Shown here in pieces: positions 2,457 to 24,134 of a stretch of 64,000 nucleotides of DNA; positions within the stretch are counted from its first letter, which is position 1, and every line of letters starts with the position of its first letter. The stretch spans positions 128,892 through 192,891 of the forward strand of contig LCBT01000003.1 in assembly GCA_000997385.1 (NCBI GenBank), written 5' to 3'. The position numbers were made by a program, and so were the translations under genes. The notes under the pieces are model-generated. The model did no database searches, had not been told where the DNA came from, and saw only the letters and a list, made by a program, of their open reading frames with translations. This stretch comes from Candidatus Daviesbacteria bacterium GW2011_GWA1_41_61 (GTDB lineage Bacteria; Patescibacteriota; Microgenomatia; Daviesbacterales; UBA10151).

Positions 2457-2502
2457 CCCGACCATAGCAGTGTAGTTTTATAACCCTCCGTTTGTGGTCG
2501 GG
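2457..2502. promoter_or_regulatory. Imperfect hairpin (8-bp arms CCCGACCA/TGGTCGGG with a roughly 30-nt loop) followed by a T-run, in the divergent intergenic region between the deacetylase-like gene and the XRE gene
   Basis: Seen directly in the sequence: cccgacca...tggtcggg then cagttttatttat. It is not a canonical terminator because of the large loop, and its function is unknown. Confidence 0.25.
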
Positions 2503-2522
2503 CAGTTTTATTTATGAAGCTA

Positions 2523-2543
2523 TTGTAGCACAAAATGCTACAA
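2523..2543. promoter_or_regulatory. Perfect palindrome TTGTAGCA-caaaa-TGCTACAA, a candidate operator for the adjacent XRE-family regulator
   Basis: Seen directly, about 58 nt upstream of the XRE start at 2601. XRE/Cro-type dimers typically bind 8-bp half-sites with short spacers. Confidence 0.35.
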
Positions 2544-2600
2544 GCAGAAGCTGGTCTGTCAGTCCCTTTTTACCTAACCTAAGTCACAGGTGGTAAAAAG

Positions 2601-2819
2601 ATGTCAGTATCTTCAATTCATGTAAAATTTGGTAAAAGGGTACAAGAGCTTCGAAAGCAAAAAGGACTAACCCAAGAAGATCTAGCAGACCTTGTAAGTG
2701 TTGACAGAAGCTATATGGGTTTTGTTGAGAGAGGGGAGCGAAATCCAACACTTGATAAGCTCGTAAAAATTGCTAAAGCACTTAAAATTACACTATCCGA
2801 ACTATTTCAGGGTGTGTAG
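2601..2819 (+). CDS. XRE-family helix-turn-helix transcriptional regulator (Cro/cI-type), 72 aa
   Basis: ORF track. KQKGLTQEDLADLVSVDRSYMGFVERGERNPTLDKLVKIAKAL is a canonical HTH_3/XRE signature. Confidence 0.85.
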   Translation: MSVSSIHVKFGKRVQELRKQKGLTQEDLADLVSVDRSYMGFVERGERNPTLDKLVKIAKALKITLSELFQGV

Positions 2820-2891
2820 TTTACCCGAAATGTCGTACCTGTTCAAATCTATTCTTTACTTTACTGAGAATTATTAGTATTCTTCAGCTAA

Positions 2892-3941
2892 ATGGCTAAG
2901 GCAGATCGTTTAAAATTAATAGCTTCCTTAGAGAAAGCAAGAGGTTCTAAGGTTATTTCTTATATTGGAGCAACAAGACAAGGGATCGGGTATGAAATGT
3001 CGCAATTAGATATAAGGATAATTTACGATCATCTTTACCAAATAAAAAAGAAGGAAAAAATTGATTTGCTGATCAATAGTTTTGGTGGAGATGTTACCTT
3101 TGCTTGGAGATTAGTTCATCTAATTAGGGAATTTTCGAGCGAGTTTAATGTTTTAATTCCGCTTCATGCTTTTAGTGCTGCTACCCTTATAGCCCTTGGG
3201 GCAGATTCCATAGTTATGCTTCCTGGATCATGTTTAGGTCCAACCGATCCACAGTCACGTAATGTATTTAACCCCTCAGAAGGTGCAAGTAAATTGCCTA
3301 TTCAAGTAGAAGATATTGCTTCTTACATAAATTTTCTAAAAGAGGATTTTGGTTTAAAAAGTGAATCTAGCTTCGTTGAATCTCTCAAGTTACTTTCACA
3401 GTCCGACAACAGGATACACCCCTTAGCTCTTGGTGCTTCTAAAAGGGGATCCCAATTAGCAAGACGGTATGCTCAAGATTTATTAGGTCTTCATATGAAG
3501 AAAAATAGCGATAAAGAAAAGATCACAAAGATAGTCGAAATGTTTAGTTCTAAACTTCTTGCACACGATCATCCAATAAATAGGGATGAGGCAGGGAAAT
3601 ATGGTTTAAAGATAAAGAAAGAGAAGCCAGAAATAGAAGGTTTAATTTGGGAACTATTTAATAAATATGAGGTTGAATTACAACTTGATGAGTTCTTTAG
3701 TCCAATAACAGAGTTTAAGAAAGTACAACCAAACATTCCACTCTCTCTAGGTAATCAATTACAACCAAAAGTAGAAGAAATATCTGTAGAATTAGCTGTT
3801 ATTGAGAGTGTTGAATATACTGATGTGAACAGTCAAGTCTTACAGGTGCAAGGATTAAAATTTCTTGATGGTTCTGGTAATATTAACGAGAATTATAGTT
3901 GGATTACCAAAAAGCAGGATTGGGAAAGACAAACAACTTAG
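2892..3941 (+). CDS. ClpP/crotonase-fold serine peptidase of the SDH ('serine dehydrogenase proteinase', S49-like) type
   Basis: ORF track. LLINSFGGDVTFAWRLV ... PLHAFSAATLIALGADSIVMLPGSCLGPTDPQ parallels the ClpP/SppA 'INSPGG ... AAS(M)G ... MIHQP' core, with the catalytic Ser in the SAAT context. The local sequence looks more AT-rich (AGA/ATA/TTA codons) than core genes, judged by eye. Confidence 0.55.
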   Translation: MAKADRLKLIASLEKARGSKVISYIGATRQGIGYEMSQLDIRIIYDHLYQIKKKEKIDLLINSFGGDVTFAWRLVHLIREFSSEFNVLIPLHAFSAATLIALGADSIVMLPGSCLGPTDPQSRNVFNPSEGASKLPIQVEDIASYINFLKEDFGLKSESSFVESLKLLSQSDNRIHPLALGASKRGSQLARRYAQDLLGLHMKKNSDKEKITKIVEMFSSKLLAHDHPINRDEAGKYGLKIKKEKPEIEGLIWELFNKYEVELQLDEFFSPITEFKKVQPNIPLSLGNQLQPKVEEISVELAVIESVEYTDVNSQVLQVQGLKFLDGSGNINENYSWITKKQDWERQTT

Positions 3942-4270
3942 ACCATTACAATTTTGTTACTAAAGTGTCATACTATTTTAGTAGACATTTGATATTAATT
4001 ATTTATGTTATTTTCTAAACTCTTTACTGGTCAGCAGAATAGTCAACCTTTGAATCCTTCTACTAAAGTTCAGGCTAGAACAATACATTTGTCTGCCAGT
4101 CAGCTTAAGAAAAAGAAACCGCTTAATACGAAAAAATTATTCACTTCTCTTGGAGAAGTTTCCTTTAAGTCTGCTTTAAACACCTATAGCATTCCCAAAA
4201 CAGAATGATAATACTATGGGTATGGTATGCTGAGTAAGTAACCCATCCTATCCAATTAACATCAGATGAG

Positions 4271-4816: not shown

Positions 4817-5028
4817 TCTGGGAATACCGGTGGTGATGGTGTAAGGTATGGTGGCAGCAGAAACTGGAGGTGGGAAAAAGAAGACAAGAGAAAAAACCAG
4901 CAGTAAGGATAATCCAGCAATCCACTTTATCATCTAATTGGAGTTTATGACAAGGAATGACTAGATTACAAGTAGTGATATTAAAAACTGACTAGCAAGG
5001 ACTTGCCAATTGTGGTATATTCTAATTT

Positions 5029-5436
5029 ATGGATGAGAAAAAGAATAAAAGAATCTTAATTGTTGAAGATGACCAGTTCCTCCGGGATTTTTATCAGGAA
5101 CTTTTAACCTCTGAAGGCTACAGTGTAGATGTGGCAGCTGATGGGGAAGTGGCTCTGCAAAAGATTGTCCAGGGAGGCTGGAGCTTAATTTTACTGGATA
5201 TTATGCTGCCTAAAAAAGACGGACTGCAAATTCTGCGTGACTTAAAGATTCAATCAGTGGCTCAACCTAACGGGCCTATTGTAGCTTTGACTAACTTAGG
5301 CCATGATGCGGTGATTGATCAGGCTTTTGATCTGGGAGCTAACGGCTATCTCATTAAATCAGCCATGAATCCTGATGAAGTTTTAATTGAAATTAACAGC
5401 TACCTTCAAAAGAATGGCACTAAAGCTACTTCTTAA
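5029..5436 (+). CDS. Single-domain response regulator (CheY-like receiver)
   Basis: ORF track. RILIVEDDQFLRDFYQELLTSEGYSVDVAADGEVAL...LILLDIMLPKKDGLQIL shows the receiver-domain D-D-K pattern. There is no output domain. Confidence 0.85.
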   Translation: MDEKKNKRILIVEDDQFLRDFYQELLTSEGYSVDVAADGEVALQKIVQGGWSLILLDIMLPKKDGLQILRDLKIQSVAQPNGPIVALTNLGHDAVIDQAFDLGANGYLIKSAMNPDEVLIEINSYLQKNGTKATS

Positions 5437-6193
5437 AGTTGTTTGGGAAGACAACTCTCTAGCAGTTTTTGATAAACCTCCCGGATTGGTAGTAACTACT
5501 TCAGAGACCCACCAGGAACCTACTTTGGAGGATATTTTAGTCTCGCAAGGCTCAACCCTGGAGCGTGGCGGAATTGTCCACCGTTTGGATAAAGATACTT
5601 CCGGGCTTATCTTGGTAGCTAAAAGATCGGAAGTTTTTGAAAACCTTCAATCTCAATTTAAAGAGCGGACTGTTTCCAAACAGTATCTGGCTTTGGTTCA
5701 CGGGCGGGTAGAAAAAGGAGGCAGGGTTGAAGCTCCTATTATCAGAAACCCCGGAGACAGGGAGAAGTTTGTGGTGGTTGAGGGATCAGGTATTGAAGGT
5801 CGGGAAGCTGTAACTGAGTATAAACCGGAAAAATTATTGGTTATGAGTGATGAGATATTAGAAAAGATCTTTGAAGGCTTTACCAAAATTCAATTCAAAA
5901 AACTGCAAACTGCAAACTATAAACTATTTACCCTTTTAAAGTGTAAACCCCTGACTGGACGGACCCATCAAATTAGGGTACATTTAAAGTACTTAGGGTT
6001 TCCCATTGTTGCTGACAGCAAGTATGGAGGGAGAAAGACTGTCAGGTTGGATCATCGATGGTGTCCCAGACAATTCTTGCATGCCTCTGTTTTGGAGTTT
6101 AACCATCCTCAGACAGGGGAGAGAATAAGACTGGAAAGCAAGTTACCAGAAGACTTAGAGAAAGTGTTGAGTTGTTTAGAGAAAGTTAAGTAA
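5414..6193 (+). CDS. RluA-family 23S rRNA/tRNA pseudouridine synthase
   Basis: ORF track (5387..6193). HRLDKDTSGLILVAKR is the catalytic-Asp motif, and GRTHQIRVHL is the conserved C-terminal motif. The likely true start is the internal Met (MALKLLLKVVWEDNSLAVFDKP) at 5414, which reduces the overlap with the receiver gene. Confidence 0.85.
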   Translation: MALKLLLKVVWEDNSLAVFDKPPGLVVTTSETHQEPTLEDILVSQGSTLERGGIVHRLDKDTSGLILVAKRSEVFENLQSQFKERTVSKQYLALVHGRVEKGGRVEAPIIRNPGDREKFVVVEGSGIEGREAVTEYKPEKLLVMSDEILEKIFEGFTKIQFKKLQTANYKLFTLLKCKPLTGRTHQIRVHLKYLGFPIVADSKYGGRKTVRLDHRWCPRQFLHASVLEFNHPQTGERIRLESKLPEDLEKVLSCLEKVK

Positions 6194-6290
6194 AAAATTA
6201 CTATATAGCAGAAGAAAGATATGTGGTGGACAATTCGGTAGTAGGACTATTGTTAAAAAGGGGGTATGTGCCGAATTAGTCCAAATATAT

Positions 6291-8366: not shown

Positions 8367-9512
8367 TTGGCAAAGGAAAAAAGGAAGGTAAATAAAAAAG
8401 GCCGAAGAGACGGATTCGGTTTTCAAAATATGAGCGGGTCAGTCTCTAAAAAATCTAAGAAAAAAGCCGGCTGGAAAAAATACCAGCTTCAAACCAAAAC
8501 CCGCCATAAAATCAACTTAGGCCTTTATGTTTTGCTGCTTATTGTAGGCTTAGTAGTGCTGGGAAAATTAATCACCTTTACTACAGGGCTCACCAAACCC
8601 TATTCCCCAGACTTGGAGGAGACCGGTAAAAACTACAATTGGAACGGAAATTCCACTTTAAATTTAGTTGTCAAATCTCAAGAGCTGTTTGTCCTCTCTT
8701 TTAATCCTGCAAGTAAGACCATGGTTGCCATTAAAATTCCTGAGGATACTTATTTAGATCTGCCTTTTAACTTTGGCCGTTGGCCGGCCAGAAGTATTTA
8801 TGATTTAGGACAGGCAGAGAAACCACCTCTGGGAGCGGCTTTACTGAAAGCCACAATTACCACCTCTTTTGATTTGCCGGTAGATGGCTATGTGGTAACT
8901 TCCGGAAATTTTGCTGACTTATCAACTGAGGAGGTGTTGGAAAAACTTCGTAAGGAGCCTTTAGGCGGGTTTAATCTGCTTCGTCAGAGCCGCTCTGATT
9001 TAAGCTTTTGGGAGATGATGCAACTGCTGCTTAAGGTGCGGGGGGTAAGAGGCGATAAGGTCAAAATCACTGATTTAGGGCAGTCTCCGATTACCAAATC
9101 GCTGCTTTTAGCTGATGGGAGCCGGGTTTTGGGCATTGATAGCTTGAGGTTAGATCAATTTCTCTCCGATCAAATCCATGATTCTTTGATGGAGGAGTCA
9201 GATTTAACTATCGGAATCTTTAATGCTACAGACCATCCTCAGTTGGCAGAAAAGGCCGCCCGGATGGTCACTAATATGGGGGGCAGGGTTATTTTTACCG
9301 CCAATGCTTCACTGAGGCGTCAAGACAGCCTGGTTTCCGGTCCGGCTTCTTATACCACCACCCGCTTGGCTCAGGTTTTTGCTCCTTATTGCTTAAAAGA
9401 TCCGTGCGCTAATTCGGAGGGAGATCCTGTTTTAAGCTCTTCCCGGGCTGAAGCTAATGTGGTTTTGGGAGAAGATTTTTTCCTTAAAACTGTTCAGCGT
9501 CCGGGGATTTAA
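8367..9512 (+). CDS. LytR-CpsA-Psr (LCP) family cell-envelope glycopolymer transferase-like protein
   Basis: ORF track, TTG start. The real start may be ATG at 8430, MSGSVSKK. It has a Lys-rich cytoplasmic N-terminus and one TM helix. LNLVVKSQELFVLSFNPASKTMVAIKIPEDTYLDLP ... RSIYDLG resembles the LCP core (DTxxxxSxNxxxxxxxLSIPRDTYV...). Confidence 0.6.
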   Translation: MAKEKRKVNKKGRRDGFGFQNMSGSVSKKSKKKAGWKKYQLQTKTRHKINLGLYVLLLIVGLVVLGKLITFTTGLTKPYSPDLEETGKNYNWNGNSTLNLVVKSQELFVLSFNPASKTMVAIKIPEDTYLDLPFNFGRWPARSIYDLGQAEKPPLGAALLKATITTSFDLPVDGYVVTSGNFADLSTEEVLEKLRKEPLGGFNLLRQSRSDLSFWEMMQLLLKVRGVRGDKVKITDLGQSPITKSLLLADGSRVLGIDSLRLDQFLSDQIHDSLMEESDLTIGIFNATDHPQLAEKAARMVTNMGGRVIFTANASLRRQDSLVSGPASYTTTRLAQVFAPYCLKDPCANSEGDPVLSSSRAEANVVLGEDFFLKTVQRPGI

Positions 9513-14600: not shown

Positions 14601-16391
14601 ATGAAGCACAAATCTATTATATTTTTGACTCTAGGATTAATAACCTATGCTTCGACTTTTTTTTTAGGAATACCCACTTCTTATGCAGGCAACTGTGATG
14701 CTCAATGCACCAATGATGGCATCCATAACCCTAGTTGCCCTGCTGATAGGGATTGTACTCTTCAATGTTTTAAAAATGCCGATGGAACTTGTTGGGGGGG
14801 TGAGTGGGTAGGAGATTGCGCTTGTGGTGGGAATAATACCTGTACTAATAACTATCAATCAACACCTTTTACTGATACTTATAGTACCGGGAGCTGTACG
14901 CTTACTATTACTCATTTAGGTTGGGATCTTAGTGATAATCAGCCTGTGGGGTATAGAGATTTGGGCACTGGTACAAACTCCCATCGGGTAGCAATGAACG
15001 ATTCGGGTGCTACCTGTAAAGATGAAACCAATTTAGATTTTACTAATAATTGGAATACCAGTTCTGGTAGTAATTTCTCCATAACTACGACCATTAATTC
15101 CAAAAGCGCTGGCAATACCTTAGCTGCTGGATGGCAGTTAAATGCTTCAGGTTGTACTATTGGTGATAGTAGTACAACCCAGATTAGTCCAACTCAGGTA
15201 GTGACAAATAGTGGATCAGGGACAAGAAATTATACCTTGTACTATGGATCTCCTCCTACAATAACTTTAACTCCCACTAATACTCCCATACCTACTGCTA
15301 CTCCAACTTTGCCCCCTAATGTTACTGCTACCGCCACTCCCACCTCTACTCCTATCCCAACTCCCACTAGCACACCAACTCTTACTCCCACCCTCACCCC
15401 TACTCCGGCAATTTATACTGTCTCCTACCGCTATGGGGAAAATTTAGCTGATTTAAATCAGGCCCCAAGTTATAACTATAACAGCCAACCGATAAATTTA
15501 ACTTATACCTTTTTAAATAACACTCCCGGCATTAAGACTTTATTTGTAGAATTTACCGACAGCACCGGCCGAAAGGATGTCAGGCAAAAAAGTATTACCT
15601 TGCTTCCCCCTGTTCCTAAAATTAACAGCCTTAGCTGCAACTATGATGTCTTAACCGGAATTGGGACAATTGCCAAAATCAGCGGGGCTAACTTTGGAGC
15701 TTCAGGCAGCGCTACAGTTAAGATGGATAATCAGCTTGCCCGGATTCAATCTTGGACTGATCAGTTGACAGCTACTTCTTCAACCTCTTCTTCTGTACTC
15801 AGCAGTACATCTACGGTGATAGCCAGGGTGAGCACCAGATTAGATGGAGAAATTCCGGTAGAGATGACTTTCAATGATGGACGGCAGTTAGAGGGTAGTT
15901 GTCTGATTGATACCACCACCATTAGTTTTGCCGCTTATGCTCAGTGCGCTCCCCCAACCAACCTTTCTTTGTCCGATGTTGAGGTCACAATTTATGATAA
16001 GGAGGGTGGGAGCCGTCCTTTGTATACTCAAACCATAACTTTAAACGACAAAGGTAAACCGACCAATTTTGCCCCTCAACTAGAGATTGGCCGGGACTAT
16101 GCGATGTTTGTCAAAGCCCCCCGTTCTGTTGCCCAGCGGCTAGATTTTACAGCCTTGGAAGGGACAACAGTTCTCTCCATGTTGGAGTTGGCTGTTGGCA
16201 ACATCAGCAGCAACCGGGGAGGTTTGCCTGATGGCAGGATTGATACTTTTGATGTCTCTAAACTTTATCAACAGTGGAGTTTAATCCAAAGTGTCCAAAG
16301 AAGCGGTGATTTTAACTCTGACACCCGGGTTAACAGCGTGGATTACTCTTGTCTTATTAGCAATTGGGGCAAAGAAGATGCCAAGTTTTAG
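14601..16391 (+). CDS. Secreted multi-domain protein: signal peptide, Cys-rich N-terminal module, Pro/Thr-rich linker, and C-terminal dockerin-like module
   Basis: ORF track. The signal peptide is MKHKSIIFLTLGLITYASTFFLGIPTSYA. There are 11 Cys in about 55 aa (GNCDAQCTNDGIHNPSCPADRDCTLQCFKNADGTCWGGEWVGDCACGGNNTC). A PT linker follows: TPTNTPIPTATPTLPPNVTATATPTSTPIPTPTSTPTLTPTLTPTP. The C-terminal roughly 57 aa, LPDGRIDTFDVSKLYQQW...GDFNSDTRVNSVDYSCLISNW, contain two 22-residue repeats. The second has a perfect EF-hand-like D1-N3-D5-N9-D12 Ca-loop, as in type I dockerins. Confidence 0.6.
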   Translation: MKHKSIIFLTLGLITYASTFFLGIPTSYAGNCDAQCTNDGIHNPSCPADRDCTLQCFKNADGTCWGGEWVGDCACGGNNTCTNNYQSTPFTDTYSTGSCTLTITHLGWDLSDNQPVGYRDLGTGTNSHRVAMNDSGATCKDETNLDFTNNWNTSSGSNFSITTTINSKSAGNTLAAGWQLNASGCTIGDSSTTQISPTQVVTNSGSGTRNYTLYYGSPPTITLTPTNTPIPTATPTLPPNVTATATPTSTPIPTPTSTPTLTPTLTPTPAIYTVSYRYGENLADLNQAPSYNYNSQPINLTYTFLNNTPGIKTLFVEFTDSTGRKDVRQKSITLLPPVPKINSLSCNYDVLTGIGTIAKISGANFGASGSATVKMDNQLARIQSWTDQLTATSSTSSSVLSSTSTVIARVSTRLDGEIPVEMTFNDGRQLEGSCLIDTTTISFAAYAQCAPPTNLSLSDVEVTIYDKEGGSRPLYTQTITLNDKGKPTNFAPQLEIGRDYAMFVKAPRSVAQRLDFTALEGTTVLSMLELAVGNISSNRGGLPDGRIDTFDVSKLYQQWSLIQSVQRSGDFNSDTRVNSVDYSCLISNWGKEDAKF

Positions 16392-16435
16392 GTTCCTGGA
16401 CAGTTTGTTAAAAGTGTGCTTCAATCATATATAGT

Positions 16436-17059
16436 ATGATCCTGCCAAATTTTACAGCCAGTGGTATTAAGAGACTAATTATTTTTACCGTAGCGGCGGT
16501 TATTGCCGGAGAGATAGTTTGGGCAGGTTGGGTTTTAACTCAGCCGGCAGTTAAAGTTGACCGCAAAGATGTCCCTTCAAAAGCTGCTAAGGATGTTATC
16601 AAACCAGTTTCTTTGGCGAAAGTTTCTTTAACTACTCCCCAAAAAACTGTCAAAGTTGGCCAAACTGTTCCGGTAACGATTAATATTTCTTCTTCTAAGC
16701 TCTCTGACGGAGCGGATTTGATTATCTATTATGACAGTAGACTGCTAACCGTAGTTACCTCTGGTAAACCAGCCGTACCGGTAACTGCGGGCAACGTTTA
16801 TCATGAATATCTTTTTAATGATCTGGATGAGAAGGCTGGGGTTATCTCTGTCTCAGCTGTTAACAGAAGGGGTGAGGCAACATTGGCTCGGGGGATATTT
16901 GGTCTAATTAATTTTAAAGCCAAAGCAGTCGGTCAGGCCAAGGTGGCTTTTGATTTTACCACCTTGGGGAATACCCGGGATTCTAATGTTATTGAGTCCA
17001 AAACTACTAAGGATCTGTTGGGAGAGGTTGAAAACCTGGAGGTAAATATCTTACCATGA
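16436..17059 (+). CDS. Membrane-anchored protein with cohesin-like domain
   Basis: ORF track. An N-terminal TM/signal anchor is followed by KTVKVGQTVPVTINISSSKLSDGADLIIYYDSRLLTVVT...GVISVSAVN...ATLARGIFGLINFKAKAVGQAKVAFDF. This fits the cohesin pattern 'G.tV.VPV......gi...d..i.YD...L......g......f.......g.i......... g.la.i.Fka...G...v.f'. Confidence 0.6.
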   Translation: MILPNFTASGIKRLIIFTVAAVIAGEIVWAGWVLTQPAVKVDRKDVPSKAAKDVIKPVSLAKVSLTTPQKTVKVGQTVPVTINISSSKLSDGADLIIYYDSRLLTVVTSGKPAVPVTAGNVYHEYLFNDLDEKAGVISVSAVNRRGEATLARGIFGLINFKAKAVGQAKVAFDFTTLGNTRDSNVIESKTTKDLLGEVENLEVNILP

Positions 17060-17757
17060 AGACAATGATCAAATTTAAGCTTTGGCATGTTTTGACTCTG
17101 ATATTACTTATCACCGGTAATCTATCGCTTATTGCTCTCCCTGCCTTGGCTCAAACGGCAAGCTTGTCTTTATCTCCGGCTTCCGGAACATTTAACCAGG
17201 GATGTACTTTCTCGGTTGAGATTAAGGTTGACACCGGAGGGAATCAAACAGATGGAACTGACGCCATCCTTTTTTATGACCCAACCCGCTTTACCGCTAC
17301 CGATATCAGAAATGGTACTGTTTATCAAAGTTACCCCCAAAGTAATATTTTTGATAGTGAGGGGAAAATTGCCATTGCCGGAGTAGCCTCTGTCAGTTTG
17401 CCTTTTCAAGGGGTTGGGACTTTGGCGACGATTGACTTTAAAGTAACTGATACAGCTCCTACCGGAGTCAGCCAAATCAAGTTTGATTTTGATCCTAATG
17501 ATAAGGAAAAAACCAGTGATTCCAATATTGTTGACCGGGCGACGACCTCGGATATTTTAAGTAAAGTCAGTAGTGGCAGCTATACAGTGGGAACCGGAGC
17601 TTGTAGTAAGGCAGTCAAACCTGTAGGTGGAGTTACAGATACTGATAAAGTAGCGCCTACCCTACCTCAGTCCGGGGCTTTTGAAAACACTTTAGCTTTA
17701 GCAGTGGTGGGCAGCGTCTTGATTTTAATTGGCATATTGGGGCTGCTACTGCTTTAA
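17056..17757 (+). CDS. Cell-surface protein with cohesin-like domain, signal peptide and C-terminal LPQSG plus hydrophobic anchor
   Basis: ORF track. The signal peptide is MKTMIKFKLWHVLTLILLITGNLSLIALPALAQ. The cohesin-like core is ASGTFNQGCTFSVEIKVDTGGNQTDGTDAILFYDPTRFTATDIRNGTVYQS...GKIAIAGV...GVGTLATIDFKVTDTAPTGVSQIKFDFD. The C-terminus TLPQSGAFENTLALAVVGSVLILIGILGLLLL is an LPxTG-like motif plus a TM, but it lacks a basic tail. Its start overlaps the stop of the 16436 gene by 4 nt, which suggests an operon. Confidence 0.6.
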   Translation: MKTMIKFKLWHVLTLILLITGNLSLIALPALAQTASLSLSPASGTFNQGCTFSVEIKVDTGGNQTDGTDAILFYDPTRFTATDIRNGTVYQSYPQSNIFDSEGKIAIAGVASVSLPFQGVGTLATIDFKVTDTAPTGVSQIKFDFDPNDKEKTSDSNIVDRATTSDILSKVSSGSYTVGTGACSKAVKPVGGVTDTDKVAPTLPQSGAFENTLALAVVGSVLILIGILGLLLL

Positions 17758-17783: not shown

Positions 17784-18704
17784 ATGACTCTCTCAGCTTT
17801 GATCACTGATTTTTTAGAATATCTGGAACTGGAAAGAGGAGCCTCTCAAAAAACTATCCAAAACTATGATCATTATCTAAAAAGGTTTTTGGATTTTACC
17901 GGCGATATTGAGCCTTCTTTGATTGATTTAGGTTTGGTGAGAAAGTACCGTCTCTATCTTTCCCGTTTTAAAGATCCTTTAACCGGGGAGGTGTTAAAAA
18001 GGGTGACTCAAAACTATTTTATGATTGCTCTGCGGGCATTTTTGCGGTATTTAGCCCGTCATGATGTTAACAGTTTATCAGCAGAAAAAGTTGAGCTGGG
18101 AGAAGCTGAGGCATCACCTATTAAGGTCTTGGATGAGACTGATTTAAAGAGATTGCTTAAGGCTCCTGATGTTTTAGATAAATCAGGTTTGAGGGATAAA
18201 GCCTTACTGGAAACACTTTTTTCCACCGGCCTTCGGGTGTCGGAGCTGGCCTCTTTAAACAAAGATACCATTAATTTAGACAGGCAGGAGTTTCCGGTCA
18301 TTGGTAAGGGTTCCAAAGAAAGGATTGTTTTTCTATCAGATGAGGCGGTAAAATGGCTGGATCAGTATATCAAAAGCAGGAAAGACAACTTTAAGCCTTT
18401 ATTTATAAGACACCAGGGGAAAATAGATCCGGAAAATGATGGGGAGAAGATGAGGCTTACTCCCAGATCTGTTGAAAGGATAGTGGAAAAGTATGTCAAA
18501 GCAGCAGGTTTATCAGTGAAAGCTACGCCTCACACTTTAAGACACTCCTTTGCTACAGATTTGTTGATTAATGGAGCAGATATCAGGTCAGTTCAGGAAA
18601 TGTTGGGGCATTCTAATATCTCCACCACCCAAATCTATACTCATGTTACCAATAAGCATTTAAAAGATATACATAAATCTTTTCATTCGGGTAATCGAGA
18701 GTAG
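17784..18704 (+). CDS. Tyrosine site-specific recombinase of the XerC/XerD type
   Basis: ORF track. TPHTLRHSFATDLLINGADIRSVQEMLGHSNISTTQIYTHV holds the R-H-R-Y catalytic box, and the N-terminal core-binding domain is present. Confidence 0.9.
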   Translation: MTLSALITDFLEYLELERGASQKTIQNYDHYLKRFLDFTGDIEPSLIDLGLVRKYRLYLSRFKDPLTGEVLKRVTQNYFMIALRAFLRYLARHDVNSLSAEKVELGEAEASPIKVLDETDLKRLLKAPDVLDKSGLRDKALLETLFSTGLRVSELASLNKDTINLDRQEFPVIGKGSKERIVFLSDEAVKWLDQYIKSRKDNFKPLFIRHQGKIDPENDGEKMRLTPRSVERIVEKYVKAAGLSVKATPHTLRHSFATDLLINGADIRSVQEMLGHSNISTTQIYTHVTNKHLKDIHKSFHSGNRE

Positions 18705-18767
18705 AAGTAGTACTTATTATAAACGTCTAAAGCTTGCCTTTTTGCTACGCAAAAACGTAAACACCTA

Positions 18768-18809
18768 AAAGATGTCCATAAGAGTTTCCACTTAGGGAAT
18801 AAGGAATAG
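18768..18809 (+). pseudogene. Displaced, diverged copy of the last 13-18 codons plus stop of the xer recombinase gene
   Basis: Seen directly. 18664-18705 encodes KDIHKSFHSGNRE*, and 18768-18809 encodes KDVHKSFHLGNKE* in the same orientation. The upstream RKHLKD also matches NKHLKD. Differences are mostly synonymous: TCT/AGT, CAT/CAC, TTT/TTC, AAA/AAG, GGT/GGG. There is no start codon. Confidence 0.5.
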
Positions 18810-18863
18810 TATGGGATATGGATGAACGTCATCCTGGAGGGAGCGAAGCGACCGATAGGATCT

Positions 18864-19151
18864 TTAAATAATGGAATCGTATAAGTCTTTCCAGTAGGGA
18901 TTTTCTTTCTCTATTAACAGATTTTTCTTCCTCCTTACCAGATTTTTGAGTGATTTCTCTCTTGCAATGGCCAGTTTAATATCTTCATAGACTTCAAAAT
19001 AAACGAGTTTAGTTAAATTGTATTCTGCTGTAAAACCAGGAACAAGTTTTTGTTTATGTTCATACACTCTCCTTAGAAGGTTATTAGTGACTCCAATATA
19101 GATCGTAGTATTTGTGTAATTAGTCATTATGTAGACATAACTATTCCTCAT
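18864..19151 (-). CDS. GIY-YIG nuclease family protein (UPF0213/COG2827-like, 95 aa)
   Basis: ORF track. YVYIMTNYTNTTIYIGVTNNLLRRVYEHK ... YEDIKLAIAREKSLK shows the GIY...YIG...R...E...N core. Confidence 0.85.
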   Translation of the reverse strand: MRNSYVYIMTNYTNTTIYIGVTNNLLRRVYEHKQKLVPGFTAEYNLTKLVYFEVYEDIKLAIAREKSLKNLVRRKKNLLIEKENPYWKDLYDSII

Positions 19152-19165
19152 TTTTAGATTCTATC

Positions 19166-19182
19166 GCCCGCCCTCGGCGGGC
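19166..19182 (-). terminator. GC-rich hairpin GCCCGCC-ctc-GGCGGGC, 13 nt downstream of the nfo stop; a possible terminator or RNA-stability stem, though it lacks a U-tract
   Basis: Seen directly. It is the only 7-bp all-G/C stem in an AT-rich intergenic spacer between nfo and the GIY-YIG gene. Confidence 0.3.
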
Positions 19183-19194
19183 TCCAGAATGACG

Positions 19195-20031
19195 TTAATG
19201 GATTAAATTTTTTAATCTTAAGATGTTATTAGTATCAGGACCTGAGCCTTCTCCTGGAACTTCTAAAATAAAGGGAATATCTTTTAATATAGGATGGTTG
19301 ATGATATTTCTAAAGCCTTCCAGTCCAATAAATCCCTCTCCAATATTTTCATGCCTGTCTCTTTTGGAGTTAAACTCGGTTTTGGAATCATTAGCATGGA
19401 TAGCTATCAAATTTTTAAGCCCCACTTCCCTATCAAACTCCTGTAAAGTTTTATTCAAACCTTCTTGACTTTTAACATCTATACCTGAGGCAAAGGCATG
19501 TTGGGTATCCAAACAAACTTTTACCCGGGAATCATTTACTCGTCGTACAATCTCCCCTATCTCCCGAAAGCTGTCTCCTATTAGATTGCCTGCTCCGGCT
19601 GAGTTTTCCAAAATTAAATTAACTTGTCCACTACTCCCTAAAATCTCCTTGATAGCCTCAATAACCTGTTTTAGGGCTTTTTCTTCAGTACTATTTTTAA
19701 AAGAACCAAGATGGAAAATAGTTCCTTTCATTCCCAACTTTTCTGCCAACTTTTGGGAGTAGATTAACCAATCAATAGATTTTCTAACTAATTCCGGATT
19801 TGGCGAGGCTAAATTGATAAGGTAAACAGCATGGATAAAGTTAGGGCTTATTTTAGTACTCTCGGTTTTTCTTCGGTACTCCTCTATTATCTGATCAGAA
19901 TGGTTTACTTTTGCCCATTGTTGGGGAGGAGAGATAAAAATTTGGGTACACTGGGCCCCCAGCTCCCAAGCCCTGTCCAGGCTTAAACTAAGATTCCCGG
20001 CAGCCGAAACATGCGCTCCCACCTTAGGCAT
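19195..20031 (-). CDS. nfo: Endonuclease IV (AP endonuclease family 2)
   Basis: ORF track. MPKVGAHVSAAGNL...IHAVYLINLASPN...FHLGS...LILENSAGAGNLIGDSFREIGEI...VCLDTQHAFASG is the Nfo metal-binding pattern. Confidence 0.9.
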   Translation of the reverse strand: MPKVGAHVSAAGNLSLSLDRAWELGAQCTQIFISPPQQWAKVNHSDQIIEEYRRKTESTKISPNFIHAVYLINLASPNPELVRKSIDWLIYSQKLAEKLGMKGTIFHLGSFKNSTEEKALKQVIEAIKEILGSSGQVNLILENSAGAGNLIGDSFREIGEIVRRVNDSRVKVCLDTQHAFASGIDVKSQEGLNKTLQEFDREVGLKNLIAIHANDSKTEFNSKRDRHENIGEGFIGLEGFRNIINHPILKDIPFILEVPGEGSGPDTNNILRLKNLIH

Positions 20032-20291: not shown

Positions 20292-23200
20292 CTATCCCTT
20301 CTCTTCCTGGTGGGAAACTATGGTGGCTGCTACCACTCTTTCCCCCTCCCTCATCCTCATCAGTATTACCCCCTGGGTTTGTCTTTGTAAAGTGGGGACA
20401 TCTTTAATATTAATTTTAATGAGCTGTCCTTTGTTGGAAGTTAAGACCAGAGTATCACCATCCTTATCCATAATTTGGGCTGTCACAATGGGCCCAGTTT
20501 TATTTGTTACCTGGGCAGCCTTTACTCCCATTCCTCCCCTGCCCTGTTTGTTCCAAGAAGAGATGAGAGTTTTTTTGCCTAAACCGTTGGCCATAACTAC
20601 CAGCAACTGATCTCCTTTAATGTCAGACACCTTGTTTAAGGAAACCACGCTGTCATCTTTGCTCAGTCTGACTCCCCTGACTCCGGAGGTATCGCGGTGG
20701 GTGGGACGGACATTCTTTTCGGTAAACCTGATTGATTGGCCTAGTTTAGAGACAATAATCAGCTCATTTTCTCCATTGGTTGGCACTACCCAACCCAAAG
20801 TATCTCCGCTGTCAAGATTGATAGAGATTAAGCCGTTTCTTCTAATAGAGGCATATTGGGAAGTTTCAGTCTTTTTAACATTTCCTTGCTTGGTACACAT
20901 AAAGAGGTATCTGGCAGTGTCTTTTTGCCGCAGTGTTAAAATGGCGGTAATCTTTTCTCCTTGATCAATATTAATCAGGTTCACCACAGCCTGGCCTTTG
21001 GCTATCCGGGAAGTTTCCGGGATCTCCCAAACTTTAAGTTGGAAAACCCGGCCTTTATCGGTAAAGAAAAGGATGTTGTCCAAAGTCATGGTATGAAAGA
21101 TATGGCTGACAGCATCCGCCTCTTTAGTAGTAATGCCGGAAACTCCTTTGCCTCCTCTGGCCTGAACCCTAAAGGTAGAAGGGGCTTGTCTTTTGATATA
21201 ACCGCCATCAGTAATAGTCACAATAGTGGGCTCATCAGCAATGAGATCTTCCTCAGAGAATTCCCCGACTTTGGATTTATAAACCCGGGTTTTTCTTTCA
21301 TCACCATACTTTTCTTTAATTTTTACAAGTTCATCTCTGATAACTTTTAAGATTTTTTCGGGATGGGCCAGCAAATCTTCCAAATAAGCGATGGTTTCCC
21401 GGACCATCTTCAGCTCTTCTTCTATTTTTAACCTTTCTAAAGCTGCCAGCCTTCTCAACTGCATGTCCAAAATAGCCTGAGCTTGAATGTCAGTCAACTT
21501 AAATTTGTTTATTAAATTGACTTTAGCCTCATCAGCATCTTTACTTTTTCGGATGGTGTCAATAATAGCATCAATATTGGAAATAGCGATCATCAGCCCT
21601 TCCAGGATATGTTCCCTGGTTTTTGCTTCTTCCAGTTCAAACTCGGAACGTCTTCTGACTACCATTTGCCGATGGTTGATAAACTCTTCTAGAATATGCT
21701 TTAAAGTTAAAAGATGAGGTACTCCGTCTACTAAAGCCACAGTATTAACGTTAAACACCGACTGCATGGCAGTGTGTTTGTAGAGGTTATTTAAAATTGA
21801 CTTCGGTTGGGCATCTCTTTTTAGTTCAATGACTACCCTCATGCCGTGGCGGTCTGATTCATCACGAAGATCAGCAATGCCTTCCACCTTTCTTTCTTTG
21901 TGCAGTTCAGCAATCCTGGCTACCAAGTTGGCTTTGTTGACTTGAAAGGGGAGTTCGGTAATAACAATATCAAATCTGCCTCCTTTGGTCTCTTCAATTT
22001 CAGCTTTAGCTCTCATGACAACCCTGCCTTTGCCGGTAGCATAGGCATTTAAGATCTCTTGAGAATCATAGATTGATCCACCTGTGGGGAAATCCGGGCC
22101 CTTGATAAACTTCATCAGGTCTTCAACATTAGCTTCACTGGTAAATTTAGGTTCTAATTTTCCATCTTCTGCCTGTTGCTCACCTCGCGGCAAAGCGGGC
22201 CTGCTGCCTGTTGCCTTCTGGGAATGATCAATCATATAAGATAGAGCATCAATCACTTCTCCTAAGTTATGGGGTGGAATTTGGGTAGCCATACCCACAG
22301 CAATACCGGAAGCTCCGTTGAGAAGTAAGTTAGGGATAATTGAAGGAAGCCAAACCGGTTCTTGGGTGGTACCGGAATAGTTGTCTACAAAATCAACTGT
22401 TTTTTTATGAATATCCCGGAGTAGCTCATCAGCAATAGCCGATAACCTGGCCTCGGTATTATGATTGATAAATCCATTGGCCACAAATGAATGACAATCA
22501 CTTTCAACTTTCAGAGAGTAAACATTCTCTAGGCCGTTTTCTTTAACCTGGCTTACTTTTTCAAACAGATAATCGTTTGTGATAAGGTATTCTAGGAATG
22601 GTTTTAAATTTTCTCCTGTTTTTTTAAGAAAGATTTCAGATACTTGGGGAGCTTGGACTTGTAAGTTACCATATCTGTCAAAATTATGTTTGACTAAAAA
22701 CTTTGAGTAACCTACTTGTTGTCTAACATAATCAGCCAAAAAAGGAACGTAGTCGAACAAAGAGTTATCTTTTTGGTAATTTAAAATGACAACTTCGAGC
22801 TTTTTATTTTTTAGCTCTCCAACAAAACCGATCTCTTTGTAGAACTTAAGAATATTTCTTTTTCCTCGTAAGTACAATTTATGGGTTTTTCTATATTTAT
22901 CGAATCGTTTAGTACTATCAATTCCAAAGCGAAGTAGAAGAATTTGCATAGTTTTAAGGAGTGTTTCGCTGACCGAGCAACAGCTTAATTCAATCATCTT
23001 CTGTGAAGATGAAATGGATCCATCGCCTTCAAAATAGCCCCTTAAAAAAGATGAAACAGTGTTTTTAGTAGAAAGTAAGATGGTGTGAGGAATCCTTTTA
23101 ATATTTGAACGCCCCACTGTCAGCCCGATGTTTTTTAGAAAATCTATAGTATATAAGTAATGGCATTCCAGACGAAAATAGTTTTTTTTGCCGTATGAGT

Positions 23201-24134
23201 TGGGTTGGCGGATAAACTGATGTAACACAGAATCAGGAAATGTTTTTTGCCAGGCATCAATAAATTTATTGATGTATTCCGGGTCAGCGTTACAAAATTC
23301 AATCTTATTTTCGGAAATACTACCTTCAGCAACTAAACTCCCTAAAATAAAACCTAGTTCTGGGGTGAATTTTTGGGGTAAAATGGTTTGTTTCGTCCGG
23401 TCAGTTCTTGGCCCAGGATAGTAGGAGGATAAATCAAGATCTGAAACAGGCCATAAGATATCCGTGGACCTATCTATAACAACAATGTCCTCAGTTCGTA
23501 TATCCTGAAGTAGTCTCCAAGACAACTTTGGTTTTTCAGTTGCATCTTTTATGAGAGTAAGTACTGGATGGTTATAGGAGCCTTGGAGCGTAAACCCTTT
23601 ATTGGTGGTTATTTTAATTGTGGGATGTTTACCTGAGTCAAACCATTTAGAGGCCTGACTAATTTTTTTATCCTTAGATAGGACCTGAATTTGGATATTC
23701 TCCTGAGAAGCAATCTTTTCAATAGGAACTAACCCTGCGTTTGTAATTACCAAGGTATCACCTGTCACGCAATACCTCATGGCAGCCGGAGAGTCACCGT
23801 CAACTGAACCAAAATTTCCCTGTCCGTCAATTAAGGTATATCTCATAGAGAAGTCTTGGGCCATTCTTACCATAGCCTCATAAACTGGAGCGTCACCGTG
23901 GGGGTGGTAGTTTTTTAAAACTTCTCCTACCACAGCAGCAGATTTTTGATAACGGCTAGTGTGGTGTAGCCCCTGCTGGGACATGGCATAAACAATCCTT
24001 CGCTGGACCGGTTTTAAACCGTCACGGACATCGGGTAAAGCTCGGGCTACAATAACCGACATGGCATAATCCAAATAGGACCGCTTCATCTCTTCTACAA
24101 TAGGTGTGGGTTCAATTTTGCCAATATTACTCAT
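20292..24134 (-). CDS. gyrA: DNA gyrase subunit A precursor (1280 aa) containing a 438-aa intein at the active-site Tyr (gyrA-a site)
   Basis: ORF track. The N-extein ends ...[12 protein letters not shown], the catalytic-Tyr motif AAMRYTE, which is interrupted by the intein. The C-extein resumes [16 protein letters not shown]. The extein sum is 842 aa, with the typical GyrA C-terminal beta-pinwheel. Confidence 0.95.
22458..23771 (-). mobile_element. Intein with LAGLIDADG (dodecapeptide) homing-endonuclease domain inserted in gyrA
   Basis: Coordinates were derived by codon counting: residues 122-559. Block A is CVTGDTLV. Block B is [10 protein letters not shown]. The two LAGLIDADG motifs are [14 protein letters not shown] and [12 protein letters not shown]. 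It ends ...VANGFINHN, followed by extein Thr. Confidence 0.85.

Follow-up and report, generated by a model that had tools for sequence, protein, structure and literature searches.

Several described systems resemble, in part, the locus analysed here. Integron cassette arrays are characterized by attC hairpins, and intronless homing by free-standing GIY-YIG endonucleases is exemplified by the T4 Seg proteins. REP/RAYT and IS200/IS605 systems depend on a Y1 (HUH) transposase and include short non-autonomous derivatives, as established in the work of Ton-Hoang, of Bertels and Rainey, and of Siguier. It has further been reported that integrative elements which target the 3' ends of genes leave a duplicated gene end behind, and that both decayed elements and tandem accretion occur (PMC5704250). 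Finally, homology-facilitated illegitimate recombination (HFIR) has been described as additive integration in natural transformation (de Vries & Wackernagel, 2002; Prudhomme et al., 2002; both as summarized in PMC6382021, whose account is the one used here). In this study, we examined the 3' end of a xer gene in a stretch of 64,000 nt of Daviesbacteria DNA (the window), where an earlier note had described a second, synonymously diverged xer 3' end downstream of the intact gene. Our literature searches brought up no account of xer gene-end remnants, nor of GIY-YIG/hairpin cassettes, in Patescibacteria.

The features of the locus are listed in Table 1. With the NCBIfam models the window Xer protein is assigned to the XerD/XerC/XerA type, the cutoff being passed for the XerA model only, and its catalytic tyrosine lies within ...TTQIYTHVTN. 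xer is a core gene with upstream synteny that is conserved across all Daviesbacteria loci, and the distance from it to nfo or gyrA varies among relatives (loci used for comparison are given as L numbers). Its neighbour can be very close: the gap measures 5 nt in L114 and just 3 nt in L124. In L027 the xer remnant even overlaps the convergent gene. Read directly from the sequence, the intact gene ends in ...NKHLKDIHKSFHSGNRE* with its stop codon at 18702-18704. The terminal unit of the gene carries an unusual I and RE when compared with the family consensus KHLKDVHKSFHSGNK(E), and its serine is encoded by TCT, as against AGY in the relatives of the same clade and in the remnant. The second copy is indeed present and differs from the gene end almost only synonymously. 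Positions 18756-18809 read RKHLKDVHKSFHLGNKE*, where a CGT codon precedes the remnant and AAT stands at the same place in the gene. The remnant has no start codon, it is separated from xer by stop codons, and it agrees with the family consensus except for an S to L change at an otherwise invariant serine, which looks like early decay. The earlier note had counted 10 of the last 13 residues as identical and had named six synonymous codon pairs, all of which proved correct; it had also placed the copy 64 nt downstream, which is imprecise, the distance from the stop being 51 nt to the R codon or 54 nt to the K codon.

Table 1. Features of the xer 3' region (positions in the window)
Feature	Position	Strand	Basis
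xer-family tyrosine recombinase gene, intact, 306 aa	17784..18704	+	Pfam Phage_integrase, E=1.4e-46, plus N-terminal SAM-like domain
Current (imported) terminal unit of xer, KHLKDIHKSFHSGNRE + stop	18654..18704	+	Residues and Ser codon usage
Spacer between the gene ends, 54 nt	18705..18758	+	Sequence read; contains weak inverted copies, hairpin and 3-nt tail CGT
Perfect 7-bp hairpin TTTTTGC TAC GCAAAAA	18739..18755		Folding
Displaced native 3' end (remnant), KHLKDVHKSFHLGNKE + stop, 16 codons + stop	18759..18809	+	Alignment to xer end and family consensus
GIY-YIG cassette, separate insertion	18822..19199	-	Nuclease gene 18864-19151 (95 aa) between inverted repeats
nfo (endonuclease IV), convergent neighbour, bounds the variable spot	19195..20031	-	Profile match

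Over 54 nt the two copies are identical at 35 positions (65%) and differ at 19, and the longest identical run is 8 nt. Among the 18 codons compared, 5 are identical, 9 differ synonymously, including the TCT/AGT serine pair, and 4 differ non-synonymously. This amounts to 11.5 synonymous differences on 9.2 synonymous sites, that is to saturation, with a pN of 0.18; when 19 substitutions were placed at random, at least 14 of the 18 codons were kept in 0 of 200,000 trials. A simple tandem duplication with identical or randomly decaying copies was rejected, as none of these trials reproduced the protein conservation. The same pattern was seen in L098, where all 11 differences between the copies are synonymous, and in L097, with nine synonymous differences and one conservative one. 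Since the divergence is almost purely synonymous in all three cases, both copies must once have been working gene ends in different lineages, and the suggestion in the earlier note of two alleles that diverged under purifying selection is therefore upheld.

When each of 66 ORFs of the window was compared with the DNA downstream of it in search of a repeated C-terminus, xer was the sole outlier (score 85, with 28 for the next best ORF and a control maximum of 28), and it is the only one with a duplicated end among approximately 780 ORFs in the loci. No other xer fragments were found within the 64-kb window. The window Xer protein is present on 24 contigs (NCBI, JGI, ENA and Logan), and the stretch from xer to nfo is 100% identical over 2250 nt in the four loci that span it, with a fifth locus, which ends early, matching over 1074 nt. 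An assembly collapse or error, against which the earlier note had cautioned, is ruled out because the sequence is identical in six independent assemblies, with loci from four sources. The second copy is thus real. It represents the old end of xer (17 codons with the stop), pushed downstream.

Tandem xer ends were found in four further lineages, three from Daviesbacteria and one from Peregrinibacteria. In all five lineages the junctions fall within 12 nt, just past the catalytic-tyrosine codons, with microhomologies of 1-6 nt (T, AAT, AC). The species bearing a duplicate belong to separate clades and their nearest relatives are without one, so that the distribution is patchy. Two sister comparisons show which copy is native. 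Relative to its sister L017 (90% aa identity), L012 has an insertion of approximately 79 nt, and the L012 remnant is colinear with the L017 end and its downstream flank and shares the ...SGNKDI end; L114, with 91% aa identity to L097, is empty at this site, and its functional end agrees at 22 of 24 positions with the oldest remnant of L097. Furthermore, the AGY (AGT) serine codon is limited to the clade of the window species and to the window remnant. Based on the empty sites in the sister species and on this clade-specific codon, we conclude that the downstream copy is the native end and the intact end the newcomer. This agrees with the proposal in the earlier note that an incoming allele displaced the resident 3' end, and the comparison of orthologous loci it had called for identifies the resident copy as the downstream one. 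Where copies are stacked, the older ones lie further from xer and are more decayed, with the newest adjoining the gene. No relative of the window species above 83% aa identity was found; for the window itself, the argument on the order of events therefore draws on analogy and on one codon character. The 42-nt ends were not resolved phylogenetically, since all pairs are identical at 31-36 of the 42 positions. The remnant in L027 (DMH, FYS) was recognized by eye and subsequently by a position-weight scan. A pattern scan of metagenomes, which by design reached only copies at most 125 nt apart and starting with AAAGA, returned 13 matches, with only three loci being real (L097, L090/L098) and the rest simple repeats.

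The strains L100 and L101 are approximately 99.8% identical and differ by an 82-nt unit inside a tract of approximately 240 nt that is identical to L097, which indicates that the units move by homologous recombination. The end in L101 is a mosaic, its first 27 nt differing from the L100 remnant and the rest being identical.

Within the window spacer the junction codons recur as weak inverted matches (CTTATT at 18713-18718 and TAAAGCTTG at 18728-18736), and the junction lies 3 nt 3' of the hairpin. When folded, this hairpin alone is no more stable than shuffled sequences, and it is single-copy within the 64-kb window. Rfam families and canonical terminators were absent from 17-20.5 kb, the spacer itself having no Rfam match, and a viral match to the hairpin pattern turned out to be an unrelated phage terminator beside a tRNA. 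The 3' part of the spacer, CTTGCC-TTTTTGC-TAC-GCAAAAA-CGT, is homologous to positions 3995-4022 of L101, where it follows the oldest xer remnant. A common layout, consisting of an A[A/T]GCT[T/A]G motif, a stem of 5-7 bp, a T[T/A]C loop, a short tail and then the remnant, recurs in L012, both L097 spacers (S1 and S2), L101 and the L027 repeat. Conservation of the hairpin module extends to species that are saturated with synonymous differences. Spacers elsewhere measure 25-39 nt, compared with 54 nt in the window.

One relative has a full-length insert at this position. In L027 the two gene ends are 82% identical and lie 1373 nt apart, and the 1.3-kb insert, located at the same position as the spacer, encodes a cNMP-binding protein as well as a RAYT-like Y1 transposase, the latter between hairpin repeats of 35 nt, and no integrase; the last of these hairpin repeats abuts the remnant. 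RAYT-like genes with hairpin repeats also lie directly after xer in L007 and L122, the closest relatives of the window species, and in L013. These Y1 proteins pass the Pfam Y1_Tnp cutoff and remain below the NCBIfam RAYT cutoff (46-48 against 80 bits). The mobile DNA found at the junction is a hairpin-repeat/RAYT-like Y1 transposase system.

We hold it, with modest confidence, to be probable that a diverged xer end together with hairpin-repeat DNA was added to the window genome by way of a homologous left arm and a non-homologous right junction, with displacement of the native end. According to this model, DNA from another Daviesbacteria lineage would have entered the cell bearing the xer end of that lineage, followed by a short hairpin-repeat element such as those found with RAYT-like Y1 transposases in these bacteria. 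Homologous recombination inside xer would have formed the left border, and on the right side the end of the hairpin element may have been joined without homology just after the catalytic-tyrosine codons (..THVTN|KHL..), the making of this right junction being, like the order of events, inferred. The product would be a xer gene with a new working end, followed by the hairpin-containing spacer and by the old end, now outside the gene. As xer abuts or overlaps a convergent neighbour in these compact genomes, an insertion must bring a replacement gene end, and events of this kind would be retained because the added DNA restores xer. Once in place, the arrangement passes from strain to strain through ordinary homologous recombination, and it can be stacked. 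A foreign segment with a homologous anchor, as in HFIR, is indicated by the synonymous saturation and by the borders of the homologous tract in L100. However, a random non-homologous right junction does not explain the clustering within 12 nt in five lineages, and it leaves the inverted copies found in L012, L097 and L098 unexplained. Also counting against our preferred model are the lack of a Y1 transposase in the 64-kb window, the single-copy state of the hairpin, the distance to the nearest relatives and the fact that no donor, with this hairpin after a native xer end and no remnant, was found among approximately 40 species. In addition, recombination between alleles as diverged as these is expected to be rare (PMC6382021).

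A second model, which we regard as unlikely, is that the unit itself, made up of 17 codons, a stop, an inverted copy of its own first bases and the hairpin, is a mobile element, small and non-autonomous. Its mobile form would be folded single-stranded DNA, handled either by an IS200/IS605-RAYT type Y1 (HUH) transposase or, in a manner resembling integron attC sites, by Xer; the fixed target in xer would be chosen by base pairing, and the host would survive because the unit carries a surrogate gene end. In its most explicit and likewise doubtful form, the last 17 xer codons, the inverted copy and the hairpin would constitute a cargo-less selfish module of approximately 80-105 nt, moved by a RAYT-like Y1 protein or Xer, directed to its target by 9-17 nt of pairing and rendered harmless by the replacement gene end. 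Consistent with such an element, the layout a-X-stop-a'-hairpin followed by a-X'-stop, in which a' is the inverted copy of the unit start a, occurs in two phylum-level lineages. At its start the spacer repeats, in inverted orientation, the bases with which the new unit begins (9 of 9 nt in L012, 12 of 13 in L097 and 16 of 17 in L098). This is a better fit than to the remnant, for which 9 of 13 nt match in L097 and 11 of 17 in L098. The a' sequence is located at the stop codon, the junction coincides with the start of a, and a circular a'-hairpin-a form would give one long hairpin, as in L012 (dG -16.6, z -4.7). An attC-like imperfect hairpin with the boundary at the 5' edge of its outer 3' arm would fit L012, unit 0 of L097 and L098. 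The same model would accommodate the stacking with the newest unit next to xer, the conservation of the hairpin module, the repeated presence of RAYT-like genes beside xer, and the short spacers, which retain features of both ends of the L027 insert, namely a weak inverted copy of 8 nt near the left end and a hairpin repeat at the right end. However, in the window the inverted copy is weak and not significant and the attC-like fit is weak as well, and for L097 unit 1 the inverted copy corresponds to an interior stretch of the unit instead of its start. The junction positions and their 5' flanks differ between lineages, and hence there is no single target word. Moreover, the sole polymorphism observed, between L100 and L101, is the homologous tract described above, which reaches at least 89 nt upstream of the junction, and not a clean 82-nt insertion. 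No solo units away from xer were found, the window contains no transposase, and only about five lineages are known.

We consider it quite improbable that the gene end and its terminator were duplicated in place, by replication slippage or unequal exchange, and that the working copy was later overwritten by diverged alleles through homologous recombination, a process that would introduce synonymous changes only. Replacement of alleles over short tracts does take place in this segment, as seen from the first 27 nt of the L101 mosaic, the L097 spacers S1 and S2 are homologous to each other, and there is microhomology at the junctions (AAT AAA, T, AC). However, the inverted copy beside the L098 stop fits the new allele and not the remnant, so that the unit came in as one piece. 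The flank of the remnant is unlike that of the new end in the window as well as in L012 and L098, with no second copy of the spacer after it, the two ends in L012 differ in length and in their C-terminal residues (NNKE and KDI), and a hairpin of the spacer type is absent after xer in about 30 duplicate-free species.

The earlier note had also suggested an integration event, with dif-like sites and IMEX-like elements to be searched for; integration of the IMEX/dif or integrase type found no support. As in an attachment-site duplication, direct repeats of the gene 3' end lie at both borders (18654-18704 and 18759-18809), and the stacked remnants resemble accretion, so that one could regard the locus as the CIME-like scar of a phage, ICE/IME or IMEX that had integrated at the xer 3' end or at dif and lost its body. 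We believe this to be very improbable, as integrase, excisionase and phage genes are lacking between the copies in all five lineages, and in none of about 45 Daviesbacteria loci was an intact xer end separated from a remnant by an element with an integrase. Element bodies as short as 25-54 nt would need to have originated repeatedly, and the two copies do not share an identical core sequence. In 36 loci no conserved non-coding 12-mer, and hence no conserved dif-like motif, was found near xer, the conserved k-mers being coding only; the palindrome AAAAGAT..ATCTTTT, which lies within the coding end, lacks conservation at its synonymous positions. GC skew merely follows gene orientation at the locus, without a terminus-like switch, and no viral contigs carrying a xer-type end were found. 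With regard to other element types, the window Xer reaches 127 bits with the integron integrase model, for which the cutoff is 265, and passes no integron-integrase cutoff; the units are gene ends and not the independent ORFs of integron cassettes. A diversity-generating retroelement was rejected, as there is no reverse transcriptase among the neighbours and the differences involve all base pairs rather than being adenine-specific.

The GIY-YIG nuclease gene on the opposite strand beyond the remnant is present as described in the earlier note (Pfam PF01541, E=3.7e-16), but the link drawn there between this gene and the duplication was not supported. The inverted repeats of its cassette, of 41 and 43 nt (18822-18862 and 19157-19199), each consist of AACGTCATYCTGGAG, a GC-rich stem and GATAGRATC, and the nfo stop (19195-19197) falls within the right one. 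Repeats of this family also border GIY-YIG genes in Saccharibacteria loci, and they stand alone in L097 and L110. The cassette is an insertion separate from the xer-end event. It could be imagined that the nuclease cuts GIY-free xer genes after the tyrosine codons and that repair from a GIY-carrying genome imports a resistant, synonymously different end, as in an imperfectly resolved intronless homing. The gene lies only 55 nt past the remnant, the junctions cluster at a conserved catalytic motif, which is the usual kind of homing target, and in some species (L033-L040) xer is broken at the same place. Nevertheless, we consider homing by this nuclease extremely improbable. Among the lineages with the duplication, only the window species has such a gene near xer, as it is absent in L012, L027, L097/L100/L101/L110 and L098. 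Even in the window the gene is not part of the duplicated segment but belongs to a cassette with inverted repeats of its own. Proteins of this type, of approximately 95 aa, comprise the catalytic domain only, unlike known homing enzymes with a DNA-binding domain. Furthermore, synonymous sites at the junction vary freely, and thus there is no conserved DNA target.

CPR bacteria have tiny and tightly packed genomes and little is known of how they take up DNA, for which this locus offers a concrete route: a core gene that abuts its neighbour is a recurrent entry point for DNA. The displaced gene ends form a readable fossil stack, newest nearest the gene, that can be used to order events and to trace exchange between co-occurring species. 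The locus also links a poorly known hairpin-repeat/Y1-transposase system to a target just past the catalytic tyrosine of Xer. Should the small units prove able to move by themselves, they would rank with the smallest known transposable elements that are guided and spare their host, and if the module reading were true, CPR bacteria would have a guided transposon that replaces gene ends and whose larger relatives, as in L027, carry the transposase. For annotation, such remnants account for spurious coding-like intergenic sequence and for odd xer C-termini in metagenome bins.

Compared with the systems introduced above, the locus shares with T4 Seg homing a nuclease gene beside a conserved gene whose allele differs synonymously; however, the nuclease here is missing in all other cases, is encoded outside the duplication and is a small protein with the catalytic domain only. 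As in integrons, a Xer-related recombinase gene stands beside an array of units, with the newest unit next to it, and units such as those of L012 and L098 can be read as closing with an imperfect hairpin that has paired outer arms, the unit boundary being placed where the 3' arm begins on its 5' side. Here, however, the units are the end of the recombinase gene itself, the arms have no conserved core site and there is no attI/Pc layout. The likeness to REP/RAYT systems lies in short hairpin repeats that flank a Y1 gene (L027, L007, L122, L013), in a junction a few nucleotides 3' of a hairpin, in the sequence 5' of the hairpin foot, which is complementary across the junction in a way reminiscent of guide/cleavage-site pairing, and in the lack of a classical target-site duplication. 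The differences are that the proteins here score below the RAYT cutoff, that the hairpin repeat is single-copy within 64 kb and that the complementarity extends over 9-17 nt instead of 4. To our knowledge, IS200/IS605-RAYT elements carry no surrogate end of their target gene. As in CIMEs and accretion arrays of the ICESt1/ICESt3 family (PMC5704250), the displaced native end lies downstream of the restored gene and successive ends are stacked, but in our case an integrase-bearing element and an identical core are both lacking, and just 25-54 nt of spacer separate the copies. With HFIR, as it is summarized in the source cited above, the locus has in common one homologous anchor, here the body of xer, a non-homologous junction with 1-6 nt of microhomology, the addition of foreign DNA and the duplication of a segment. 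While the junctions in that account are scattered, those described here lie at nearly the same codons in five lineages, and the imported piece always ends just after the hairpin and begins with the bases that are inverted at its stop.

In this CPR/Microgenomates bacterium, a member of Daviesbacteria (record GCA_000994095.1, contig LBZY01000003.1), the gene for an xer-family tyrosine recombinase is followed by a second copy of its own 3' end, here called the remnant, and the synonymous divergence between the two that was described in the earlier note is borne out: the alignment covers 18 codons, of which 5 are unchanged, 9 carry synonymous differences and 4 carry non-synonymous ones. Nucleotide identity is 35/54, synonymous sites are saturated with a pN of 0.18, and none of 200,000 trials with 19 randomly placed substitutions kept the observed protein identity. 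The remnant lacks a start codon, and stop codons intervene between it and xer; it follows CGT, at the place where xer has AAT, and equals the family consensus but for leucine at an invariant serine. The locus shows 0 differences over 2250 nt across contigs from NCBI, JGI, ENA and Logan, and a mis-join, which the earlier note had considered, is therefore excluded as the cause of the duplicate.

Features of the window and of xer loci from relatives (L-numbers, each with its own coordinates)
Locus	Feature	Position (nt)	Remark
Window	secreted or anchored proteins	14601-17757 (+)	three
Window	xer	17784-18704	terminus KHLKDIHKSFHSGNRE, stop
Window	spacer between xer ends	18705-18758	54 nt
Window	hairpin part	18733-18758	CTTGCC-TTTTTGC-TAC-GCAAAAA-CGT
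Window	remnant	18759-18809	second copy of the 16 codons and stop at the xer end; KHLKDVHKSFHLGNKE, stop
Window	repeat/GIY-YIG site	18822-19199	
Window	cassette inverted repeats	18822-18862 and 19157-19199	41/43 nt
Window	GIY-YIG gene	18864-19151	in own cassette
Window	gyrA	20292-24134 (-)	1280 aa
L012	duplicate		Daviesbacteria STC_54; spacer 25 nt
L097/L100/L116 population	duplicate		two successive remnants, second with internal deletion
L027	duplicate		copies 1373 nt apart
L090/L098	duplicate		Peregrinibacteria-type xer, 44% identical to window's
L100	exchanged tract	3778-3977	
L110	xer	2501-3454	
L033, L034, L035, L036, L038, L040	broken xer end	near 4850-4920	
L007	RAYT-like Y1 transposase gene	4985-5638	
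L013	RAYT-like Y1 transposase gene	5149-5799	
L122	RAYT-like Y1 transposase gene	3478-4128	
L027	RAYT-like Y1 transposase gene	5489-6205	
L009	PF05635 gene	4949-5323	
L061	repeat/GIY-YIG site	2384-2818	
L065	repeat/GIY-YIG site	~2886	
L047	repeat/GIY-YIG site	8276	
L053	repeat/GIY-YIG site	2011	
L097	repeat/GIY-YIG site	8991-9025	
L110	repeat/GIY-YIG site	after 3479	
L008	DUF5656-type gene	411-1283	
L008	duplicated 3' end	1250-1440	

Of the three secreted or anchored proteins encoded upstream of xer, one has 596 aa and a Pro/Thr-rich linker and two have cohesin domains; this block is kept beside xer in all Daviesbacteria loci. The window gyrA contains an intein that includes a homing endonuclease domain of LAGLIDADG type; in relatives gyrA encodes 810-870 aa and the intein is absent.

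The gene-end duplication is specific to xer. When the sequence downstream of each ORF was searched for a repeat of that ORF's C-terminus, xer reached a score of 85 in the window (66 ORFs), the next-best ORF and the reverse-strand control each reaching 28, and in all fetched loci (~780 ORFs) matches were restricted to xer, save simple tandem repeats and one unrelated case in L008. There, the DUF5656-type membrane protein gene has its 3' end in duplicate, as CATATCACAACCTCTTGGG[C/T]GGGATAG, with a 29-nt tandem repeat of ~4.5 copies in between; this is another kind of gene-end duplication, unlike that of xer.

About 45 Daviesbacteria loci were examined with 4-kb flanks, and a metagenome scan covered xer-end copies separated by at most 125 nt; duplicates of this kind were found in at least four lineages beyond the window. 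The divergence between the ends is synonymous in all duplicate-bearing lineages (11/11 differences in 51 nt of L098, a stop-to-stop change included; 9 codons synonymous and 1 conservative in L097), and the left edges of the remnants, at H/V in L098, V/T in L027, T/N in L097 and N/K in L012 and the window, span no more than 12 nt straight after the catalytic tyrosine codons. Species that carry the duplicate are dispersed over the tree built from the Xer body, and the relatives nearest to them have none. As a separate observation, several species have an xer truncated or fused right after the catalytic Tyr (ends VTN/TLK, IY/RLCSGKL and TH/SGNK, each then stop), and that of L034 (TTQ/KMFT, stop) lacks the Tyr; the C-terminal tail seems to be dispensable, or often lost at the same breakpoint region.

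Comparisons between relatives indicate that new ends are added beside the gene body and old ones pushed outward. L012 has a ~79-nt insertion relative to its sister L017 (90% aa), whose ...SGNKDI terminus is shared with the L012 remnant and not with the L012 working end, i.e. the current terminus of the intact gene; the remnant then runs on into flank common to L017. In L114 (91% aa to L097) the site is empty and 5 nt separate the xer stop from a convergent holin-like gene; the working end of L114 is a 22/24 match to the outermost L097 remnant. In L110 (89%), the working end is the allele found as first remnant in L097; its stop is lost (TAG to GAG), and read-through of the spacer, ending in FHSGNKEVETSSPSLCSE, stops at the junction with the next remnant. 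The outermost copy is the most decayed. For the window species, with no relative above 83% among the matches listed, the remnant has a serine codon, AGT, found elsewhere only in its own clade (L009, L016, L124), and the working end has TCT there; the remnant is best read as the native xer end in early decay. The suggestion that an incoming allele displaced the resident 3' end is thus supported, the downstream copy being the resident one in L012, L097 and, judged by the AGT codon, probably the window.

The best-supported account is an import in four steps. A diverged xer end with hairpin-repeat DNA, with or without cargo, would arrive from another lineage; its left arm would recombine by homology within xer; its right end, just beyond the hairpin, would be attached a little past the tyrosine codons by non-homologous joining; and the product would be retained because xer is restored where intergenic room is absent. 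Duplication in place, followed by allele replacement, fits less well and we regard it as improbable.

Exchange of such units (new xer end, stop and spacer with hairpin) can be seen between strains. Over 6.9 kb, L100 and L101 share about 99.8% identity and are one 82-nt unit apart; this unit sits within a ~240-nt tract in which L100 equals L097, a more distant relative, and which is bordered on both sides by L101-type sequence, and the L101 working end is a mosaic. Its transfer in L100 is ordinary short-tract homologous recombination, and the tract is direct evidence that natural populations of Daviesbacteria in the Rifle aquifer undergo such exchange.

The spacer itself is a module. In L012, L097 and L098 its first bases, starting at the stop codon, repeat in inverted form the opening 9, 13 and 17 nt of the new unit (matching at 9/9, 12/13 and 16/17), and this inverted copy is closer to that unit than to the remnant; no such copy was seen at the xer stop in about 30 duplicate-free loci. 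In L098 the stem exceeds shuffled sequences in stability by 7 SD. A short hairpin comes next, with the remnant starting 2-4 nt beyond it. The inverted copies in the window (CTTATT, TAAAGCTTG) are weak and not significant. The window hairpin part is homologous to sequence 3' of the oldest remnant in the L100-L109 population, and this homology persists though synonymous sites between these species are saturated. The window, L012, both successive L097 spacers (S1/S2), L101 and L027 have a common layout of A(A/T)GCT(T/A)G, a 5-7 bp stem, a T(T/A)C loop and a short tail. Clustered junctions, an inverted copy at the stop codon and a conserved hairpin would all be expected of a unit able to move on its own, as folded single-stranded DNA, by Y1/HUH or attC-like chemistry, and the import account leaves them unexplained; the L100/L101 tract speaks against self-mobility for the one visible event, and we hold it to be possible but rather unlikely.

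In L027, a 1.3-kb insert between two xer ends (82% identical) contains a small hairpin, a cNMP-binding-domain gene and a RAYT-like transposase gene, whose product passes the Pfam Y1_Tnp cutoff and has its best NCBIfam match, below cutoff, to REP-associated tyrosine transposase. This gene lies between 35-nt direct repeats, each containing a hairpin; the second abuts the remnant with a 2-nt overlap, and the remnant overlaps the end of a convergent gene. In L007 and L122, which of the matches listed are most closely related to the window species, RAYT-like genes flanked by hairpin repeats likewise lie 8-12 nt past the xer stop; in L013 such a gene lies ~230 nt downstream of xer. L124, another close relative, has no insert, and the gene that follows comes 3 nt after the xer stop. 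The occurrence in four Daviesbacteria species of three clades suggests that the site downstream of xer is preferred by a RAYT-like/hairpin-repeat system, and, given the L027 insert and these genes, the short spacers resemble solo copies of L027-type hairpin-repeat DNA, or derivatives reduced to its two ends. In L009, the variable spot after xer holds a 23S rRNA intervening-sequence protein gene.

The GIY-YIG nuclease gene was earlier read together with the duplicate as a possible footprint of mobile DNA, a link that finds no support: every other duplicate-bearing lineage lacks the gene, which sits in its own inverted-repeat cassette, inserted where a few bases part the native xer end from the nfo stop. 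Repeats of this family bracket GIY-YIG genes in Saccharibacteria loci and occur alone in L097 and L110; relative to L114, the solo L110 repeat is a ~30-nt insertion directly after the old xer stop. The cassette is a small insertion of its own, the second at this crowded gene junction and independent of the first, and GIY-YIG homing, which fits less well than import, is very hard to credit as the source of the duplicate. GIY-YIG genes of ~90 aa bracketed by inverted repeats, (A)ACGTCATCCTG plus a GC-rich stem (plus GGATC), look like a nuclease-plus-palindromic-repeat system widespread in CPR and analogous to RAYT/REP; repeats of this type also occur alone as ~30-nt insertions between convergent genes.

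A decayed integrase element or IMEX likewise fits less well than import and is highly unlikely. The xer arrangement resembles in outcome the duplicated gene ends and accretion arrays left by integrative elements (PMC5704250), but it lacks an integrase-bearing element. The closest known process to the proposed import is homology-facilitated illegitimate recombination (background in PMC6382021).
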